DNA of 64,000 nt, taken from the NCBI RefSeq assembly GCF_045037415.1, contig NZ_CP173439.1. One strand, written 5' to 3'. A program made the translations under genes and the position numbers. This stretch comes from Escherichia coli (GTDB lineage Bacteria > Pseudomonadota > Gammaproteobacteria > Enterobacterales > Enterobacteriaceae). The notes under the pieces are model-generated. The model did not search any database. It worked only from the letters and a program-made list of their open reading frames with translations, and was not told the origin of the DNA. Below, one piece after another: positions 318 to 54,547 of this stretch (position 1 is the stretch's first letter; each line of letters opens with the position of its first letter).

Positions 318-1124
318 TCAGGATAATTGTTTCAGCATCACAACCGCATCAGATTCCGGCATCGCAAACTGCACCCGGTGCCGTGCAGCCACATCCAGCG
401 CAAACACCTTCGTGTAGACCTCCGTTGAGCTGATGGACTTATGCCCCATCAGGCTCTGCAGGACCTTCAGCGGTATACCGGCATACAGCATGTGCATCGC
501 ATAGGAATGGCGGAACGTATGTGGCGTGATCGGGACAGAGAACGTCACACCATCAGCGGCAGCGGCGGCAACCGCTTCCCCAATCCAGGTCCTGACCGTT
601 CTGTCCGTCACTTCCCAGATCCGCGCTTTCTCTGTCCTGCCTGTTCGTTTATTACGCCGTTCCATGGGGATTTTCAGTGTTGCCACCATCGTCTGCAGCT
701 GGCTGACGTACCAGGAGTCGGAGAGCGGGACCAGCCGGTGAGTCTGCTGACCGGCTGGCATTCTTCCTGCCGTCCTGGCGGCTTTTTCGGTCCGTTGTTT
801 CAGGGTCGCAAGCTGCACAAACGGATACGGAGGCGTGAGCGAAAAATCCCCCCGCGTCAGCGCTAGTGCTTCATTAATACGCGCGCCGGTGTTCCACAGA
901 GTGGCCAGCAGCATCTTGCGGCGCAGATCCGGGACATAATGAAGCAGGGCACTCACCTCGGGAGCCAGCAGATATTTCGGCAGTTCATCATGAACCATCG
1001 ACATCTGGCGGAGTGCCAGAGCTGCCGGATAATCAATGGCAACAGGAAGTTGTGCAGACTGTCCGGCAGAATACACTGCCGGTACCATGGCTGCAGACTG
1101 GCTGTGTATAACGGAGCCTGACAT
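318..1124 (-). CDS. resD: ResD tyrosine site-specific recombinase (F-plasmid D protein, multimer resolution)
   Basis: 268-aa ORF; translation matches F-plasmid ResD as recalled (MSGSVIHSQSAAMVPAVYS..., HxxR/Y recombinase C-terminus); sits directly downstream of ccdB as in F. Confidence 0.85.
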   Translation of the reverse strand: MSGSVIHSQSAAMVPAVYSAGQSAQLPVAIDYPAALALRQMSMVHDELPKYLLAPEVSALLHYVPDLRRKMLLATLWNTGARINEALALTRGDFSLTPPYPFVQLATLKQRTEKAARTAGRMPAGQQTHRLVPLSDSWYVSQLQTMVATLKIPMERRNKRTGRTEKARIWEVTDRTVRTWIGEAVAAAAADGVTFSVPITPHTFRHSYAMHMLYAGIPLKVLQSLMGHKSISSTEVYTKVFALDVAARHRVQFAMPESDAVVMLKQLS

Positions 1125-1650
<526 letters not shown>

Positions 1651-2244
1651 AATGCACCTCATCTTACATACTCTCTGTACACCATTAAGTATACACCAGT
1701 ATTACGCTATAACATGCCTCCGGCAACGGAATATTGTTATCCAGCTATTATTAACACCACCATCAATAACTGACCTGAAAAGTAATCATGACAATAATAA
1801 CCTGCAATGTAGTAACCATGATAAATTACAGGATGACTGTTTTTCTATGATCCGATTTTTATCGGATTCAGGATTTTCCGGAAGTGAATCAGGATCAGTG
1901 AATAAGCGAAGCGATCTTTTCTGCCGCTGATGACTGGCTCGGGAACACGGGAAGAAACACAACATACAGTGTCATGTCAGCGGAGCGGGACACCACATCC
2001 TGTGAAAGCGGACCAGCGGGCGGCAGCGAAGGATCCGCGGATCCGGAACCACCAGAAACCGGATCTGCGTGATGAGAAAAGAGTAGTAGATATGATTTTA
2101 TATAAAAAACATAAAACCATACCAGGCGTGATGTTTGTCATAATATATAAATTCATACCTGATATGATATTTACCAAAGTAGAGATAAATTATTCGCTGT
2201 ATGATTTTACCTATTAATGCACATAATCAAATGGAGCATGCAGG

Positions 2245-2514
2245 ATGGATGAAAAAGTATACTTTCGCCTCAGCTATGAAACGATGACCGGCGATACGGA
2301 AGACTTCATTAACGCATGTATTGAACGGGCAAACCGTGCGGACTGCAACGATACCGATGCGGAGATTGCCCGCGCACGCAGCACCATTGAACTCTGGTAC
2401 TGTCTGGCACTCGCGGGGCGTGCCCCAGACGACGTCGCCGACAGGGATCATCTGCGGTTCACCGAAATGCTCCTGCGCGCCCCGACAGCAGAACAACGCG
2501 CATGTCAGCTGTAA
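2245..2514 (+). CDS. hypothetical protein (high-GC gene)
   Basis: 89-aa ORF divergent from ccdA; noticeably GC-rich relative to neighbours; no recognisable family. Confidence 0.35.
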   Translation: MDEKVYFRLSYETMTGDTEDFINACIERANRADCNDTDAEIARARSTIELWYCLALAGRAPDDVADRDHLRFTEMLLRAPTAEQRACQL

Positions 2515-3098
2515 CCTCCCGTGGGCCGTCGCCGCTGCAACGACGGGTGCTGATTGTGCTGGCTGCCCTTGATGAAAAACGGCCTGGCCCCGTGCTGACT
2601 CGGGACATAGAACGGGTGCTGGAGCGAAGCGGGGAAGCCCCGGTCTACGGACCAAACCTGCGCGCCTCCTGCCGGCGCATGGAAGCATCAGGCTGGCTTC
2701 GCACACTGCGCGCCCCGAATCTGCAGCTGGCTGTCGAACTGACGGACGCCGGCCGGGCCGTGGCACAGCCTCTGCTGCTGGCAGAACAGGACCGCCTCCG
2801 GGCAAAACAGCGCGCGGCAGAAGTCGTCGTACTGCCGCTGGTCCCGGCATCAGGTCTGCCCGCAGACGGCACTTCTGCCACTGATCTGGCGGTGGAGCTG
2901 AACGGCATGACGTATCAGGCCTGCCGTGGGGATTTTGTGGTACGTCTCGACGGCAGCACCTGTCTGCAGTTATGGAACAGAGAAGGCAAGGTGGTACGCC
3001 GGGAGGGCGATCCGCTGGAAGTGGCGCAGTGGCTGCAGGCCTGTCATGATGCCGGAATAAAAGTTCGTGTACAGGTTAATGAAAGTATCACCCCGTAA
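2502..3098 (+). CDS. hypothetical protein, possible winged-helix N-terminus
   Basis: 198-aa ORF overlapping the upstream ORF end; N-terminal LQRRVLIVLAALDE...VLTRDIERVLE resembles a DNA-binding fold; GC-rich. Confidence 0.45.
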   Translation: MSAVTSRGPSPLQRRVLIVLAALDEKRPGPVLTRDIERVLERSGEAPVYGPNLRASCRRMEASGWLRTLRAPNLQLAVELTDAGRAVAQPLLLAEQDRLRAKQRAAEVVVLPLVPASGLPADGTSATDLAVELNGMTYQACRGDFVVRLDGSTCLQLWNREGKVVRREGDPLEVAQWLQACHDAGIKVRVQVNESITP

Positions 3099-3165
3099 AA
3101 ACATGCCTGCACGATTCACACATCATCCCATGGTGGCAGCCGGTTAACTTTCCTGCACCACCAGT
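3075..3165. repeat. Inverted-repeat copy A (~90 bp) bounding the AT-rich lasso island; partner at 9035..9125
   Basis: Reverse complement of 9035..9125 matches this stretch with a few mismatches (shared ...ccccgtaaaaacatgcctgcacg...catcccatggtggcagccggttaactttcctgc...). Confidence 0.6.
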
Positions 3166-3463
3166 GGAAAGAGGCCATGAGCAGTCCGAACAAAAAACCA
3201 CCCGTGATACTTATAATAATGGCCTCACCGGCCACCATTCCTGACGGCCCCCAGTAGATAAACCACATTGCACATCCCCAGGAAATGCCCCATAAGCCCC
3301 CCGTCAGCACCGTGACCTGCCAGAACGGCATAAAGGGTAATGGCGGAAGCCGGATCCCCAGCCGCCAGAGAATACGCAGAAGAGGAGGGGCATAATTGCT
3401 CCGCCACATCTTTTTGCTGTCCATCAGGGCAATGGCCCGGGCTTTTTTCTGCTCAAAAGTCAC
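3116..3463 (-). CDS. hypothetical small membrane protein
   Basis: 115-aa ORF with hydrophobic helices (LWGISWGCAMWFIYW, IIISITGGFLFGLLMASF); its last ~17 codons are duplicated in inverted orientation near 9040..9090. Confidence 0.5.
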   Translation of the reverse strand: MTFEQKKARAIALMDSKKMWRSNYAPPLLRILWRLGIRLPPLPFMPFWQVTVLTGGLWGISWGCAMWFIYWGPSGMVAGEAIIISITGGFLFGLLMASFHWWCRKVNRLPPWDDV

Positions 3464-3573
3464 AGGAGTACCTCCGTTCCATGATGTAAACGTGACACAG
3501 TTTATTGTTATTGATTATTATTATCATTATGTTATCACGCACCAGTACACGATGACAATAAAGGAGAAACCAG

Positions 3574-3921
3574 ATGAAAGCGGATATATCTGTAAAGTAT
3601 TTTCTGAAAAGCCTGATACCAGGTTTCATTATTCTTACAGTTTTTTATCTGGGATGGAAAGATAACCAGGAAAATTCAAGAATGTTTTATGCGTTCATCG
3701 GATGCATTATCAGCTCCATTACTTTTCCTTTTTCAATGAAGATAATACAGAAAATGGTAATAAGGTTTACAGGGAAAGAAGTCTGGCAAAAAGACTTCTT
3801 TACTAATCCAGTTGGCGGAAGCTTAACTGTAATATTTGAATTATTCTGTTTCGTTATATCAGTTCCTGTAGTTGCCATTTACTTAATATTTATATTCTGC
3901 AAAACCCTTTCAGGAAAATGA
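3574..3921 (+). CDS. small polytopic membrane protein, unknown function (first gene of the AT-rich island)
   Basis: 115-aa ORF with about three hydrophobic segments; AT-rich codon usage like the lasso genes downstream. Confidence 0.5.
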   Translation: MKADISVKYFLKSLIPGFIILTVFYLGWKDNQENSRMFYAFIGCIISSITFPFSMKIIQKMVIRFTGKEVWQKDFFTNPVGGSLTVIFELFCFVISVPVVAIYLIFIFCKTLSGK

Positions 3922-4456
3922 AAGGGCATCATTATATGTCAGATACCAATAAGTTTATTGTTCTGCTCAATAAACTTATCATTAACAAGCGCACTCACAG
4001 CAGCCATAATAATTGCAAAACCCAGAATACCTACAAGGGTCCCCGGCATGACGGAAAACGTCCATGCGGTAACAGATGAAGTAGCTCTTCCTGCTGCCAG
4101 TGATTCAAGTTTTACAAAAAATGGACGCCAGTTATCTGTCCAGACAACCTTACCAAACTCAGTGCTCCAGTCAGCAAAATCGTTGCCTTCAGTACACCGT
4201 GTTTTCTCTTCAGCTCTCTTCTGGTTGATGTCGGCAAGCTGGCAACAAAAATTCTCTTTTTACGTCAAGAACGTCATTTGCATGTTTTTACTCATTTGTT
4301 CTGGCACTGACGTTATTTCTCGCCGAATTTACCGCAGATTCAGCAAAGGTGATTTTATTGTAACTGCAACACCTACCAGATGACGGAAAACGGGTGAACG
4401 GATTAGAGTACGATTTTTCCATTTCGTGATCTTCACCTCAGAACCCCACCATTGAT

Positions 4457-9034: not shown

Positions 9035-9125
9035 GCGCGGAACCCCTCTTTCCACTGGTGGCGCAGGAAAGTTAACCGGCTGCCACCATGGGATGATGTG
9101 TAAACCGTGCAGGCATGTTTTTACG
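9035..9125. repeat. Inverted-repeat copy B (partner of 3075..3165)
   Basis: Contains an inverted duplicate of the 3' end of the 3116..3463 gene (reads ...SFHWWRRKVNRLPPWDDV*) plus its downstream sequence. Confidence 0.6.
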
Positions 9126-9137
9126 GGATGATGCTTT

Positions 9138-9169
9138 CATTTGGATATAGAGAATTATTGTACGTTCAG
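9138..9169. repeat. partial copy of a 38-bp Tn3-family-like terminal repeat (tttggatatagagaattattgtac...)
   Basis: Shares the core tttggatat.ga.aattattgtac with copies at 32001, 42145 and 56465. Confidence 0.4.
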
Positions 9170-21120: not shown

Positions 21121-21790
21121 GAGTTATTTTTCACGTAGCACACGCACTGTTTATGGATACAGGTATTCTGACCTGAACGCCCGGATCCTTCCACGACAAT
21201 AAATCGCAGCGCGCGGATCCTTTTGTTTGATTATCACGCATTATTGCGGGTAAAACCAAATGCGTAAAGGCGCATTTTGCCGCAGGGATCCCGTCTTAAG
21301 CCAGTCATGGTGCGGGCTGAGAGCTGGTTTACCGTTTTTGGGAGAATTGGGGTAATGCCAGGAACAGGCAGATACGGAGAAAAATCCTGCAGATAACCTT
21401 CTACGACAACTGAAGGTGTCTGACGCCATATTCTTAGCTACTTCTCAGTTTTAAGGCGGCTTAGTCACAACATAAGGTTATGCATAATAAGCATATTTTA
21501 TTATGTTATGGTCTTGTTCATGCATGAACTGTTATCTATTCAGTCACTTTTAACGTTTTATATCATACTGCATATGACACAATCATCTTCTATATTCAGA
21601 TTAAAAATATTATGACGACGATCAAATAAATTTAGTGAAATCATTACTTACAATAATATGTTTATGACATAATTTATCAAAAATATCCGACAACCTTCCT
21701 GAAAGGTTACTGCGAGGAGTCAAACAATGAAGTGTAATAACTTATTCAGTCTTTTTTATGCTCTCTTTATAGCAAAACCAGGAAGTTAAA

Positions 21791-45671: not shown

Positions 45672-46306
45672 CTAAAGGCGTCTTTGGCTTCGGTCAGCGA
45701 ACACTGCTGTTTTTCTTTGCAGGACGGTGAATCTTTGTAGTCCGTCATCTGCGCCAGCAGCTGATAGCTGTTGTCAAGCTGCATCTGGCTGCGCTCTTTT
45801 TCCATCGCCTGCACCGCTTTCTGGCTAAACGCCGCAGAGTCATCGGTGATCACCGGATTAAACGTTGGGTCCATCGTGCCCATTTTTTCCTGATGATGTA
45901 CCGGAATGTCGCACCCAGGGAAAGCGCCGGTGATAAAGAATTGTGCCGTCGCAACGGTGCGTTGCAGACTGTTGGCATAGGTATATACCGTGTCCGGCGT
46001 CGGGCATTCGCCTGACGTGACCATCCCCAGCTCCGCCAGCCATTCTCGCATGTAGTGGCCCATATAAATTTCCAGCACACCGCCTTTCGTGGTGAGCTGC
46101 CCGCCGGGCACATCCCACTCCGGCCACTGATTCGGCGTGGACTGCTCCAGCACGCTGCCATTATTGGCCAACGGCGCGCGCAAGTTGTGTCGGCTCATCA
46201 TCAACACTTGTTGCAGTTGATAACCTTCCGGCGTTGTCTGCGCTTGCGCGGCGGACGACAATAAAACAGCCCCTGCCACAGCGGCGGCGAGTATCAATTT
46301 TTTCAT
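45672..46306 (-). pseudogene. agp: glucose-1-phosphatase/histidine acid phosphatase (Agp-like), 3'-truncated by IS5
   Basis: Signal peptide plus RHNLRAP (RHGxRxP) motif; close to E. coli Agp over ~210 aa, then enters IS5. Confidence 0.7.
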
Positions 46307-52566: not shown

Positions 52567-54513
52567 TTATGGGTTATTTTTTATCGTCTCCCCGGGAACC
52601 GCGCTTTTGCGCCGCATCACCCACAGCGCCACCAGCGCCGCGAGCAGCAATACGACCTGCGGTAACAACGTTTCCACGTAGGGATAAATCCCCAGCCAGC
52701 TGATTTCAGGGAAGCCGTTAATCAACGTAGGCTGGAACAGTTTGCCTTCCACCAGTTCCAGAACGCCTTTGCCCGCAAAGACGAAGGCCATCAGATACAT
52801 GAAACTGCCGGTAAACATAAAGAAGGGTTTCAGCGGCAGGCGCACTACTGAGTAACGCATCACCAGCCAGGCGAGCAGCAGCACCACGCAGCCAATCACA
52901 AAACCGGCGCCAATCGCCATATGGCCGGATACCGTGTTTGCATCGCCAATCAGAGCGTAATAGAACAGCACCGTTTCCGCCCCTTCGCGGTACACCGCCA
53001 GGAAGCTGGTCAGCCATAGTCCGACCAGGGAGCCTCGCGACAGGGAATGAGACAGTTTGCCTTCCAGCCAGGCTTTCCAGTGGCGCGCTTCCACTTTGGA
53101 CAGCAGCCAGTAACTCATAAAGAACAGCATCACGACGGCAATCAGCATCGTTATGCCTTCCAGCAGTTCACGGCTGGCGCCGGAGTTAGTAAACAGCATC
53201 TGGAAGATAGCGGCGGTGATGACGCTGGCGATCAGCGCCACAATTACCGACTGACGAATAAGCGGCAGCTTATCCTGATGGTTGTTTTTCACCATGTAGG
53301 CCACGATTGCCGCAACAATCAGCAGCGCTTCCAGCCCCTCGCGCACGATGATCATCAGACTATAGAGCAGCAGACTCCACTGGGTTTCTTCGCCTTCGCC
53401 CAGCATCGTCACGGCTTTTTGCAGATCCTGCGCCAGCGCGCTGGCCTCTGCATTCAGGCGCTCAACCGGCTGACCGGCCTTCATCAGACTGACCAAGCGG
53501 GTAAAATACGCCTCCAGCGTGGTTTTAAATGCCGAATCGCGAGAGCCGATTTTGTTTTCCATGCCGCTGGCTTCGAAGCGGTCGAAGTAGGTATCCTGGA
53601 TATCCAGAATCGCATTCTTCGCATCGCCGCCCTGATAGCGCGCTATCGCGTCCTGAATGCTCTGGTTAATTCCCGTCGTCACCTCAGCCCAGTCGGTGCG
53701 GTTATTTCCCTCGTCCGCCGCCGGAATGTTGTCTGCGCTTTGCGCTGCGGCAACCTGCTGATCGTCACGGGTGGTTGGCAAGCCGGGTAAGATATCCTCG
53801 ATATCCTGTAGCAGCGTAGTGACCTGATAGGAGACATCGTTGAGATGGTCAGGTTGCGCGGTCAGCGCAATCAGGGATGAGAATTGTTGGTTAATGGAGG
53901 CGGCATCTTTTGCAGAACGGTTTTGTCTGAGGGACATCTCCATCTCAGAGTTTTTAAAGCCCTGATAGTGCGCCTGTTGAACGTGCTGACTGGCAACGCT
54001 GTAATTCCCGGCCTGATATTCAGTGACCGCCTGCGCCAGCAGATCGTCGATCGTCCTGAAACTCTCCTGCCAGTGAACGGCAATGTCGTCCCTGGACAGC
54101 GCGTTGTGCTGCTCTTCGGCCACCAGACGATGTCCGCCATCCAGCACCGGTTCCACTTCGCGCAGTGCGGCTTTCAGCCAGTCAATGCGCGCCTGGACGT
54201 CAGCGAGCGGTTTTTTCTCGCCAATCATTCGACGGATCTCGCCGAATGCGCTCTCCATCTCGTAACTTTTGCGCGCGGAAATGTTGATGCGGATCGGCCC
54301 TTCCAGGTTCTCGAACACCTCAAAATAGGCCATTTGTACCGTGCGGCGCGCCTCGTCGGCATGCTGTTGCTGATAAAGTTCCGCTGTTTTATCAAGACGT
54401 TGCTCGATATCTTCAATCAAAGGCGCATAATTCGTCGACGCCCAGACACTCATGCTTATAAACAAGCCAAAGAGAGTAACCAACAAAGAGTTACGAAAGT
54501 TACGCACGTGCAC
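52567..54513 (-). CDS. fetM: FTR1-family iron permease with large N-terminal periplasmic domain (FetM-like)
   Basis: 648 aa; REGLEALLIVAAI (RExxE motif) in the C-terminal membrane domain; Fur box immediately upstream. Confidence 0.8.
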   Translation of the reverse strand: MHVRNFRNSLLVTLFGLFISMSVWASTNYAPLIEDIEQRLDKTAELYQQQHADEARRTVQMAYFEVFENLEGPIRINISARKSYEMESAFGEIRRMIGEKKPLADVQARIDWLKAALREVEPVLDGGHRLVAEEQHNALSRDDIAVHWQESFRTIDDLLAQAVTEYQAGNYSVASQHVQQAHYQGFKNSEMEMSLRQNRSAKDAASINQQFSSLIALTAQPDHLNDVSYQVTTLLQDIEDILPGLPTTRDDQQVAAAQSADNIPAADEGNNRTDWAEVTTGINQSIQDAIARYQGGDAKNAILDIQDTYFDRFEASGMENKIGSRDSAFKTTLEAYFTRLVSLMKAGQPVERLNAEASALAQDLQKAVTMLGEGEETQWSLLLYSLMIIVREGLEALLIVAAIVAYMVKNNHQDKLPLIRQSVIVALIASVITAAIFQMLFTNSGASRELLEGITMLIAVVMLFFMSYWLLSKVEARHWKAWLEGKLSHSLSRGSLVGLWLTSFLAVYREGAETVLFYYALIGDANTVSGHMAIGAGFVIGCVVLLLAWLVMRYSVVRLPLKPFFMFTGSFMYLMAFVFAGKGVLELVEGKLFQPTLINGFPEISWLGIYPYVETLLPQVVLLLAALVALWVMRRKSAVPGETIKNNP

Positions 54514-54528
54514 ACCGCCAAAGAATAC

Positions 54529-54547
54529 AAATGATAATTATTATCAT
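54529..54547 (-). promoter_or_regulatory. Fur box upstream of fetM
   Basis: AATGATAATTATTATCAT, one mismatch from the Fur core; lies 15-35 bp upstream of the annotated GTG start, so the true start or promoter geometry needs checking. Confidence 0.5.

Follow-up and report, generated by a model that had tools for sequence, protein, structure and literature searches.

What do two overlapping open reading frames (ORFs) between the ccd genes and a bacteriocin island on an Escherichia coli plasmid encode, and why do they stand there? The frames, termed ORF89 and ORF198 after their lengths in amino acids (aa), occupy positions 2245-3098 of a 64,000-nucleotide stretch of contig NZ_CP173439.1 (assembly GCF_045037415.1), the whole of which is called the window below. 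Both are conserved protein-coding genes whose homologues are expressed, and they form a ydfA/ydeA-type cassette; in this window they are ordinary genes of the plasmid's backbone or accessory set rather than an anomaly. The cassette begins at what is very probably rfsF, the crossover site of ResD, and structure modelling places a winged helix-turn-helix (wHTH) in its second product.

The gene pair and its family

The two genes are laid out as follows (RBS, ribosome-binding site; pI, isoelectric point).

2245-2514, plus strand: ORF89, 89 aa, ATG start with GGAG 8 nt 5' of the ATG; small acidic protein (pI 4.55), a diverged YdfA-type partner
2502-3098, plus strand: ORF198, 198 aa, a YdeA-family protein

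The start of ORF198 lies inside the end of ORF89, and the resulting 13-nt overlap (ATGTCAGCTGTAA) suggests that translation of ORF198 is coupled to that of ORF89. The coordinates are those of a first-pass annotation of this DNA, which had described two ORFs of unknown function overlapping by a few bases. A programmed -1 frameshift joining the two frames was considered and rejected, as the overlap holds no slippery site and its geometry is not conserved, the YdfA-type gene of related cassettes simply abutting ydeA.

Homologues and a coding signal, whose absence that annotation had named as grounds for refutation, were both found, and the frames are genuine genes. The ratio of non-synonymous to synonymous substitution rates (dN/dS) is approximately 0.15-0.35 for both ORFs against diverged homologues: ORF89 differs from its Klebsiella homologue by 22.5 synonymous and 16.5 non-synonymous changes (dN/dS 0.16), and ORF198 gives 0.18-0.35 across eight comparisons. 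Homologous clusters number more than 1100 for ORF198 and 42 for ORF89. Transcripts of the pS88 homologues have been detected by quantitative reverse-transcription PCR (PMC3438092), the ydfA-ydeA-ibfA genes of pUA1135 form one transcription unit by reverse-transcription PCR (PMC12111858), and the Klebsiella homologues WP_004152102 (ORF89 type) and WP_004152103 are both present in a quantitative proteome (PMC12470040).

By sequence similarity, ORF198 is a member of the plasmid YdeA family, a name drawn from the annotation of IncI1 and ColV plasmids. Its residues 6-198 are 91.2% identical to the product of the gene annotated as ydeA in pN537 (E 3e-105), and the UniRef cluster of an ORF198 homologue bears the name 'YdeA protein'. 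The usual upstream partner of ydeA is YdfA, a protein of 83-86 aa, to which ORF89 shows 30% identity (BLASTP, E 1e-6) and with which it has in common an N-terminal M-D-x3-F-x-L-S-Y-E motif, a central LW[YH]xLAxxG motif, its position and the RBS block. The two motifs are common to four partner allelic types. Judged by homology and position, ORF89 is a diverged YdfA allele, not a close member of that family; at least four partner alleles exist, comprising the ORF89 type, two YdfA types and the types found at loci L007 and L018.

The family is very widespread. YdeA was found by tblastn in at least 5000 PLSDB records from Escherichia, Klebsiella, Salmonella, Enterobacter, Citrobacter and Serratia, on plasmids that are mostly conjugative. 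Cassette-related DNA is present in 2079 of 5426 complete E. coli genomes (38%), with 2779 of the 2812 places concerned on plasmids, and a search of a phage genome collection returned no YdeA homologue. The particular combination of ORF89 with ydeA, standard in Klebsiella IncFIB(K) plasmids, is found in only 30 of those 5426 genomes. With the ydfA/ydeA cassettes of IncI1 and ColV plasmids (R64, ColIb-P9, pS88, pUA1135 and pN537) the pair shares gene order, the promoter/RBS block and the dyads described below; it differs in its partner allele, in the overlap that replaces abutting genes, and in having no same-strand ibfA after ydeA. Each of the contexts examined has different genes downstream of the cassette.

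Scans of both proteins and of the four partner alleles against Pfam, NCBIfam, PADLOC and PHROGs returned nothing above threshold, with the sole exception of phrog_19460, of unknown function, on the wHTH of YdeA. Below threshold, the only Pfam matches of YdeA were AbiEi_4 on the wHTH (15.2 bits, E 0.025, cut-off 25) and PaaX (12.8 bits, cut-off 24.8). An Rfam scan of positions 1500-3600 gave no RNA family.

Considerable variation is seen within the family. Truncated copies of ydeA, 100-140 aa long, occur in very large numbers in assemblies of E. coli and Salmonella (clusters count 382 and 668 sequences), and IncI1 plasmids with Tn21 inserted in ydfA have been described (PMC9412624); given both, the cassette is frequently inactive and apparently dispensable. 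A small upstream ORF with an LxxW/Y-H/Y-x-x-A/F-x-x-G-x-P motif is kept even beside YdeA homologues of 30-51% identity (L010, 1516-1689; L018, 2742-3008), being shortened to 52-57 aa and free of overlap with ydeA in L010; the homologues of L014, L015 and L017 have no partner gene at all. Long YdeA forms of 303-428 aa, such as that of K. pneumoniae pTMTA63633 (L007, 5001-6221), bear a conserved C-terminal extension of approximately 100-230 residues with no Pfam match. This extension was compared with the 'DNA-binding protein' encoded downstream in Klebsiella, and the two are unrelated. In L007 the operon continues after the long ydeA with genes for a DUF6884 protein, an acyltransferase and a thermonuclease.

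The plasmid gene shares its name with the chromosomal ydeA, which encodes an L-arabinose exporter of the major facilitator superfamily. A 2026 genome-wide association study on IncK2 plasmids takes the plasmid 'ydeA' as the arabinose exporter (PMC12987596), a reading that may be a mix-up of the two.

Modelled folds and the upstream region

Three parts of YdeA, the ORF198 product, can be distinguished (AF2, AlphaFold2; pLDDT, predicted local distance difference test).

2523-2819, plus strand: wHTH and long helix of YdeA (residues 8-106), from the AF2 model, Foldseek, a PDB profile search and charge
2781-2801, plus strand: AEQDRLR heptad (residues 94-100) in the linker helix, variable in copy number among close homologues
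2886-3077, plus strand: C-terminal beta domain (residues 129-192), AF2 pLDDT >90; five strands, a helix and a strand

The AF2 model of YdeA, built from a 22-sequence alignment, has a pLDDT of 88.8 overall and of more than 90 over residues 11-106. Residues 11-80 fold as a winged helix-turn-helix and residues 82-106 as a long helix, which is followed by a low-confidence linker. In a Foldseek search of the PDB, the wHTH half retrieved MftR, MepR, LmrR, PadR and SSV1 F-93 (E 5e-4 to 4e-3, probability 1.0), with template-modelling scores of up to 0.7, normalised to the target, against structures of the MarR/PadR type; in a profile search of PDB sequences, the recognition helix and the wing matched MarR (E 0.004). 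Residues N52 and R54 of the recognition helix are almost invariant, and charge is split within the protein between a basic wHTH (pI 11.2) and an acidic C-domain (pI 4.9). On the model's fold, the N-terminus of YdeA is a MarR/PadR-like wHTH DNA-binding domain, which puts the winged helix that the first-pass annotation had thought possible for the second ORF on a firmer footing; the Pfam hidden Markov models of MarR and PadR gave no match. Like the repressors MftR, MepR and LmrR of the MarR/PadR group (subfamily 2) and SSV1 F-93, YdeA combines a three-helix wHTH, a beta wing and a long helix, and like MarR/PadR proteins it has candidate palindromic operators over its own promoter. Unlike them, it carries an extra 70-residue beta domain without a solved relative and has a dedicated small partner gene.

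This C-domain found no PDB structure by Foldseek at E <0.001, the best weak matches being the PH-like (pleckstrin homology-like) domains of FACT Pob3N, Spt16D and SSRP1, and it is possibly PH-like in its modelled fold. It had no Pfam match, its profile search of PDB sequences was empty, and a profile search of 5.8 billion proteins gave no new architecture, only fragments from the YdeA family; the domain is family-specific. Near-identical homologues carry from 0 to at least 3 copies of the 21-bp unit that encodes the AEQDRLR heptad, and its gain and loss account for the length series of 191/198/205/212 aa and 189/196/203/210 aa. Comparison of these sequences makes the linker helix appear tuned in length or prone to slippage. 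A tandem-repeat search of the window copy found nothing relevant, the variation being visible only between homologues. Other in-frame deletions among YdeA homologues fall between short repeats. ORF89 is modelled as a three-helix bundle, with a pLDDT of approximately 90 for residues 10-80, and has 18 Asp and Glu residues against 11 Lys and Arg.

The 180 bp 5' of ORF89 have a guanine-plus-cytosine (GC) content of approximately 30% and hold a series of inverted repeats.

2089-2211, plus strand: AT-rich promoter and candidate operator array, from sequence motifs conserved among cassettes
2089-2096: half-site GATATGAT
2113-2136: degenerate dyad
2152-2168: central dyad TTCATACCTGATATGAT
2160-2168, plus strand: candidate extended -10 element TGATATGAT in the right arm of the central dyad, read from the sequence
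2189-2205: dyad ATTATTCGCTGTATGAT

The dyads follow the pattern ATCATA-N5-TATGAT at a spacing of approximately 37 bp. From the position of the candidate -10 element, transcription would start near 2176, in agreement with the start that BProm predicts for pUA1135, 69 bp upstream of ydfA (PMC12111858). Dyads, spacing and the RBS/start block are kept across IncI, IncF and Klebsiella cassettes despite the 30% identity of the small proteins, and versions of the motif also precede distant YdeA homologues (L018, 51% identity; L017, 54%; L015, 42%). Exact half-sites number 30 in 11 upstream regions, several of which come from loci related to each other, compared with 6.3 +/- 2.4 in dinucleotide shuffles (maximum 14). 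Two further YdeA targets in the window were considered and dismissed: the site at 21562 is a single weak match, and that at 54531 resembles a Fur box and precedes an FTR1 permease gene. The Fur-box-like sequence itself, AAATGATAATTATTATCAT, lies at 54529-54547, just 5' of the FTR1-family iron permease gene (52567-54513, minus strand).

The probable rfsF junction and the neighbouring genes

The left boundary of the cassette and the genes on either side are placed as follows.

2036-2069: probable rfsF (ResD) crossover core, an imperfect inverted repeat GCGGATCCGG-N12-CCGGATCTGCG; left cassette boundary
318-1124, minus strand: resD, at the window start
up to ~1662, minus strand: ccdB and ccdA, next after resD
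3116-3463, minus strand: DUF6404 membrane-protein gene (Pfam E 1.8e-36), convergent to ORF198; a frequent cassette neighbour
3574-3921: colicin-E1-type immunity gene, after the DUF6404 gene and before the lasso-peptide cluster
3078-3174: left arm of an inverted repeat, 97 bp: the final 21 nt of ydeA, 17 nt of spacer and the final 59 nt of the DUF6404 gene
9045-9141: right arm of the inverted repeat, a truncated relic of a second ydeA/DUF6404 junction in opposite orientation

Homology with 781 ccd-type plasmids stops at 2049-2068, within this core, and homology with ydeA cassettes begins at the same junction. The unit on the ccd side (1663-2068) is common to hundreds of ccd-carrying plasmids at up to 100% identity. 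The same core is found in the F plasmid (NC_002483) at approximately nt 45922-45950, a position that corresponds to the start of the RepFIA unit, in which rfsF sites come first and are followed by oriV-1, ccdAB and resD (PMC4398462); because of this correspondence, the core is very probably rfsF. It accompanies the cassette in IncF, IncI and Klebsiella plasmids and, as an F-type core, in L017. Earlier work has proposed that gene sets are exchanged at rfsF (PMC8004404, PMC9412624), and the position of the two ORFs at the edge of the ccd module can be understood as that of cargo exchanged there. The placement that the first-pass annotation had left unexplained is thus accounted for by a cassette that begins at the crossover core ending the RepFIA ccd/oriV-1 unit. 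Its description of the pair as divergent from ccdA holds for the geometry only, as approximately 580 bp containing oriV-1 and rfsF separate ccdA from ORF89 and the genes are not divergent operon partners.

The slot beyond the core (window 2036-2069; L013, 2394-2534; L019, the F plasmid, ~3423-3451) is occupied by different genes in different RepFIA plasmids: pifC/pifA (T7 exclusion) in F; vapBC together with genes for an AAA ATPase and a UvrD helicase, which may form a defence pair, in p4_2_1.1 (L013); and the ORF89/ydeA cassette followed by the bacteriocin island in the present plasmid. Judged by these contents, the slot appears to be a hotspot for cargo with roles in defence and competition. 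On the ccd side of the oriV-1/rfsF-proximal unit, short direct repeats are found at 1829-1936 (CAGGATGACTG/CAGGATCAGTG, GATTCAGGAT/GAATCAGGAT and AGTGAATCAG/AGTGAATAAG), which may be ResD or replication-related sites.

On the other side, the DUF6404 gene stands beside the cassette in loci L001, L004 and L008 as well, and the order ydeA-DUF6404, in some cases continuing into cim, occurs in other plasmids without a lasso-peptide cluster. The two arms of the inverted repeat (3078-3174 against 9141-9045) are 95% identical and bracket the DUF6404 gene, the colicin-E1-type immunity gene, a colicin fragment and the lasso-peptide cluster. The first-pass annotation rightly saw an inverted-repeat boundary next to the ORFs but left their placement beside it unexplained, and the left arm turns out to be the ydeA/DUF6404 junction itself. 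A transposon end that happens to lie beside ydeA was rejected on the same ground, the left arm being made up of the 3' ends of the two genes. Read from its sequence, the right arm is a truncated relic of a second such junction, which suggests that two ydeA/DUF6404 cassettes recombined or that an inversion took place between them. Adjoining the immunity gene, at approximately 3939-4229 on the minus strand, lies a 96-aa fragment annotated in pVR50B (L001) as a 'colicin-like pore-forming protein'; it is probably what remains of a colicin gene that decayed while its immunity gene was kept.

Proposed function, rival readings and significance

The reading favoured here, with confidence a little above even, is that the pair constitutes a self-contained two-gene regulatory cassette of the ydfA/ydeA type, composed of an autoregulated wHTH repressor and an acidic partner beside rfsF. 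YdeA would dimerise through its long helix, and perhaps through its C-domain too, to give a dimer or a higher oligomer, and would bind the dyad array, one arm of which is the extended -10 element, thereby repressing its own promoter. ORF89, made in a fixed ratio through translational coupling, would modulate YdeA as a co-repressor or an anti-repressor. Downstream genes on the same strand would be co-controlled, such as ibfA in IncI1 plasmids and Hha-type genes in Klebsiella IncFIB(K) plasmids; no same-strand gene follows ORF198 in the window, where the cassette would regulate only itself because the next gene is convergent. Its spread over IncF, IncI and Klebsiella plasmids would have proceeded by ResD/rfsF-mediated and homologous exchange beside rfsF.

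Several observations weigh against this account. Deletion of the whole ydfA-ydeA-ibfA unit of pUA1135 had no phenotype beyond the loss of ibfA (PMC12111858). Partner allele type does not co-vary with YdeA type, which argues against a tight, specific interface, and a fused AF2 chain of ORF89, a Gly-Ser linker and the YdeA C-domain only, in which each fold was confident, gave no confident docking (predicted template-modelling score 0.43). ORF198 matches no Pfam regulator family at cut-off. As to the operators, the most distant homologues (L010, L012 and L014) lack the motif, two of the three dyads in the window are degenerate, and the window as a whole holds 7 dyad matches where 2.9 are expected, a marginal enrichment; TGATATGAT may be conserved simply as a promoter element, and the AT-rich ATGAT/ATCAT motifs also resemble Fur-box hexamers.

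Known systems offer partial parallels. ArdK, StbA and KorA of R388 and RP4 are small autoregulated backbone repressors with repeated sites in their own promoters, and PifC of F is a plasmid DNA-binding repressor that occupies the equivalent slot beside rfsF; YdeA differs from all four in having no relation to them in sequence or fold beyond a generic helix-turn-helix. AbiEi-type antitoxins consist of an N-terminal wHTH and a C-terminal domain, as does YdeA, and the weak AbiEi_4 match, below the Pfam cut-off, falls on the wHTH. In contrast to AbiE, a type IV toxin-antitoxin system, the locus has no AbiEii nucleotidyltransferase, its neighbours being the DUF6404, colicin-E1-type immunity and ccdA genes, and the partner is a small helical protein encoded upstream.

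A toxin-antitoxin-like addiction module, with one product inhibiting growth, the other neutralising it and the wHTH protein autoregulating in a reverse-order type II or AbiEi-like arrangement, is judged unlikely. Two small overlapping plasmid genes near ccdAB and resD, palindromic sites over the promoter, a mosaic and fast-evolving small partner, the AbiEi_4 similarity (E 0.025) and the presence of vapBC/vagCD in the slot beside rfsF of other RepFIA and IncR plasmids (PMC9412624) all invite it. Neither protein, however, matches a toxin or antitoxin model in Pfam, NCBIfam, PADLOC or PHROGs, the plain acidic three-helix bundle of ORF89 is unlike known toxins, an AbiEii-type nucleotidyltransferase is absent nearby and from all loci examined, several distant ydeA homologues stand without a small partner, and ydeA or ydfA is often truncated or interrupted, as by Tn21 in ydfA (PMC9412624), with no sign of compensation. 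Another idea is that ORF89 is the effector, for instance an acidic DNA mimic or an anti-defence or establishment protein, and YdeA merely its repressor. ORF89 is small, helical and strongly acidic and diverges quickly into allelic types beside a conserved promoter and YdeA, in surroundings with many genes for defence and competition (ibfA, pif and the bacteriocin island). Yet library and structure searches showed no similarity to ArdA, Ocr, KlcA or another known family, the cassette lies outside the leading region and acidity alone is weak evidence, so this idea must be rated slightly less probable than an addiction module. A two-protein module not recognised before, in which an acidic three-helix effector (toxin-like, anti-defence or for establishment) is held by YdeA through the dyad array, is about as improbable as the addiction module itself.

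YdeA might instead be an architectural accessory to multimer resolution by ResD at rfsF, with the dyad array comparable to the accessory sites of cer or res. The array starts approximately 20 bp from the core, and the core travels with the cassette in the three plasmid groups and in L017, but whatever DNA is exchanged by crossover at this site would be expected to lie next to it. Moreover, F and L013-type plasmids have the core beside other DNA (pifC, vapBC), L018 has the motifs and no core, and the repeats that could serve ResD sit on the ccd side (1829-1906); this role is quite improbable.

The least credible alternative, to which we give hardly any weight, is that the ORFs are a recent import from a higher-GC donor, as the first-pass annotation had suggested, or that the true gene is the 207-aa antisense ORF at 2227-2850, whose frame is open for 282 codons here. 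Total GC content is 0.630 for ORF198, 0.563 for ORF89, 0.572 for resD, 0.539 for ccdA and 0.513 for ccdB, against a window mean of 0.49, so the claim that both ORFs are richer in GC than ccd and resD stands for ORF198 but not for ORF89, which does not exceed resD. At third codon positions (GC3), ORF89 (0.600) and ORF198 (0.638) are level with resD, ccdB, ccdA and the DUF6404 gene (0.618-0.644). The excess in ORF198 lies at the first (0.759) and second (0.492) positions and, being confined to these, reflects amino-acid composition (Ala, Arg, Gly, Leu, Pro and Val). The contrast seen by eye is due mainly to the flanks, an intergenic region of 0.40 GC on one side and a bacteriocin island of 0.33-0.42 on the other. 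The GC3 of Klebsiella copies (0.76-0.81) could point to such a donor, but that of distant, AT-rich metagenomic relatives is 0.44-0.47, and the composition of the cassette therefore tracks its host. The family is, besides, old and present on thousands of enterobacterial plasmids, which also counts against a recent import. The antisense frame breaks in the diverged homologues L005 and L018, whereas the plus-strand ORFs are intact in all homologues and under purifying selection, and it is their products that proteomics detects; to judge from these comparisons, the antisense ORF is a shadow of a GC-rich coding frame.

The analysis thus corrects two easy misreadings of this locus, as foreign high-GC DNA and as the chromosomal sugar exporter YdeA. 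What is new is an assignment at the level of the modelled fold (a wHTH, a new beta domain and an acidic partner), a candidate operator and a genomic logic in which the cassette is the first cargo beside rfsF. Should the pair be a two-protein effector module after all, it would represent a new functional system in more than one third of complete E. coli genomes and on major Klebsiella resistance plasmids. The family is modestly interesting, being uncharacterised but extremely widespread, and few unannotated features of enterobacterial plasmids are as widespread as this pair, which is carried by IncF, IncI and Klebsiella IncFIB(K) plasmids of resistance and virulence.

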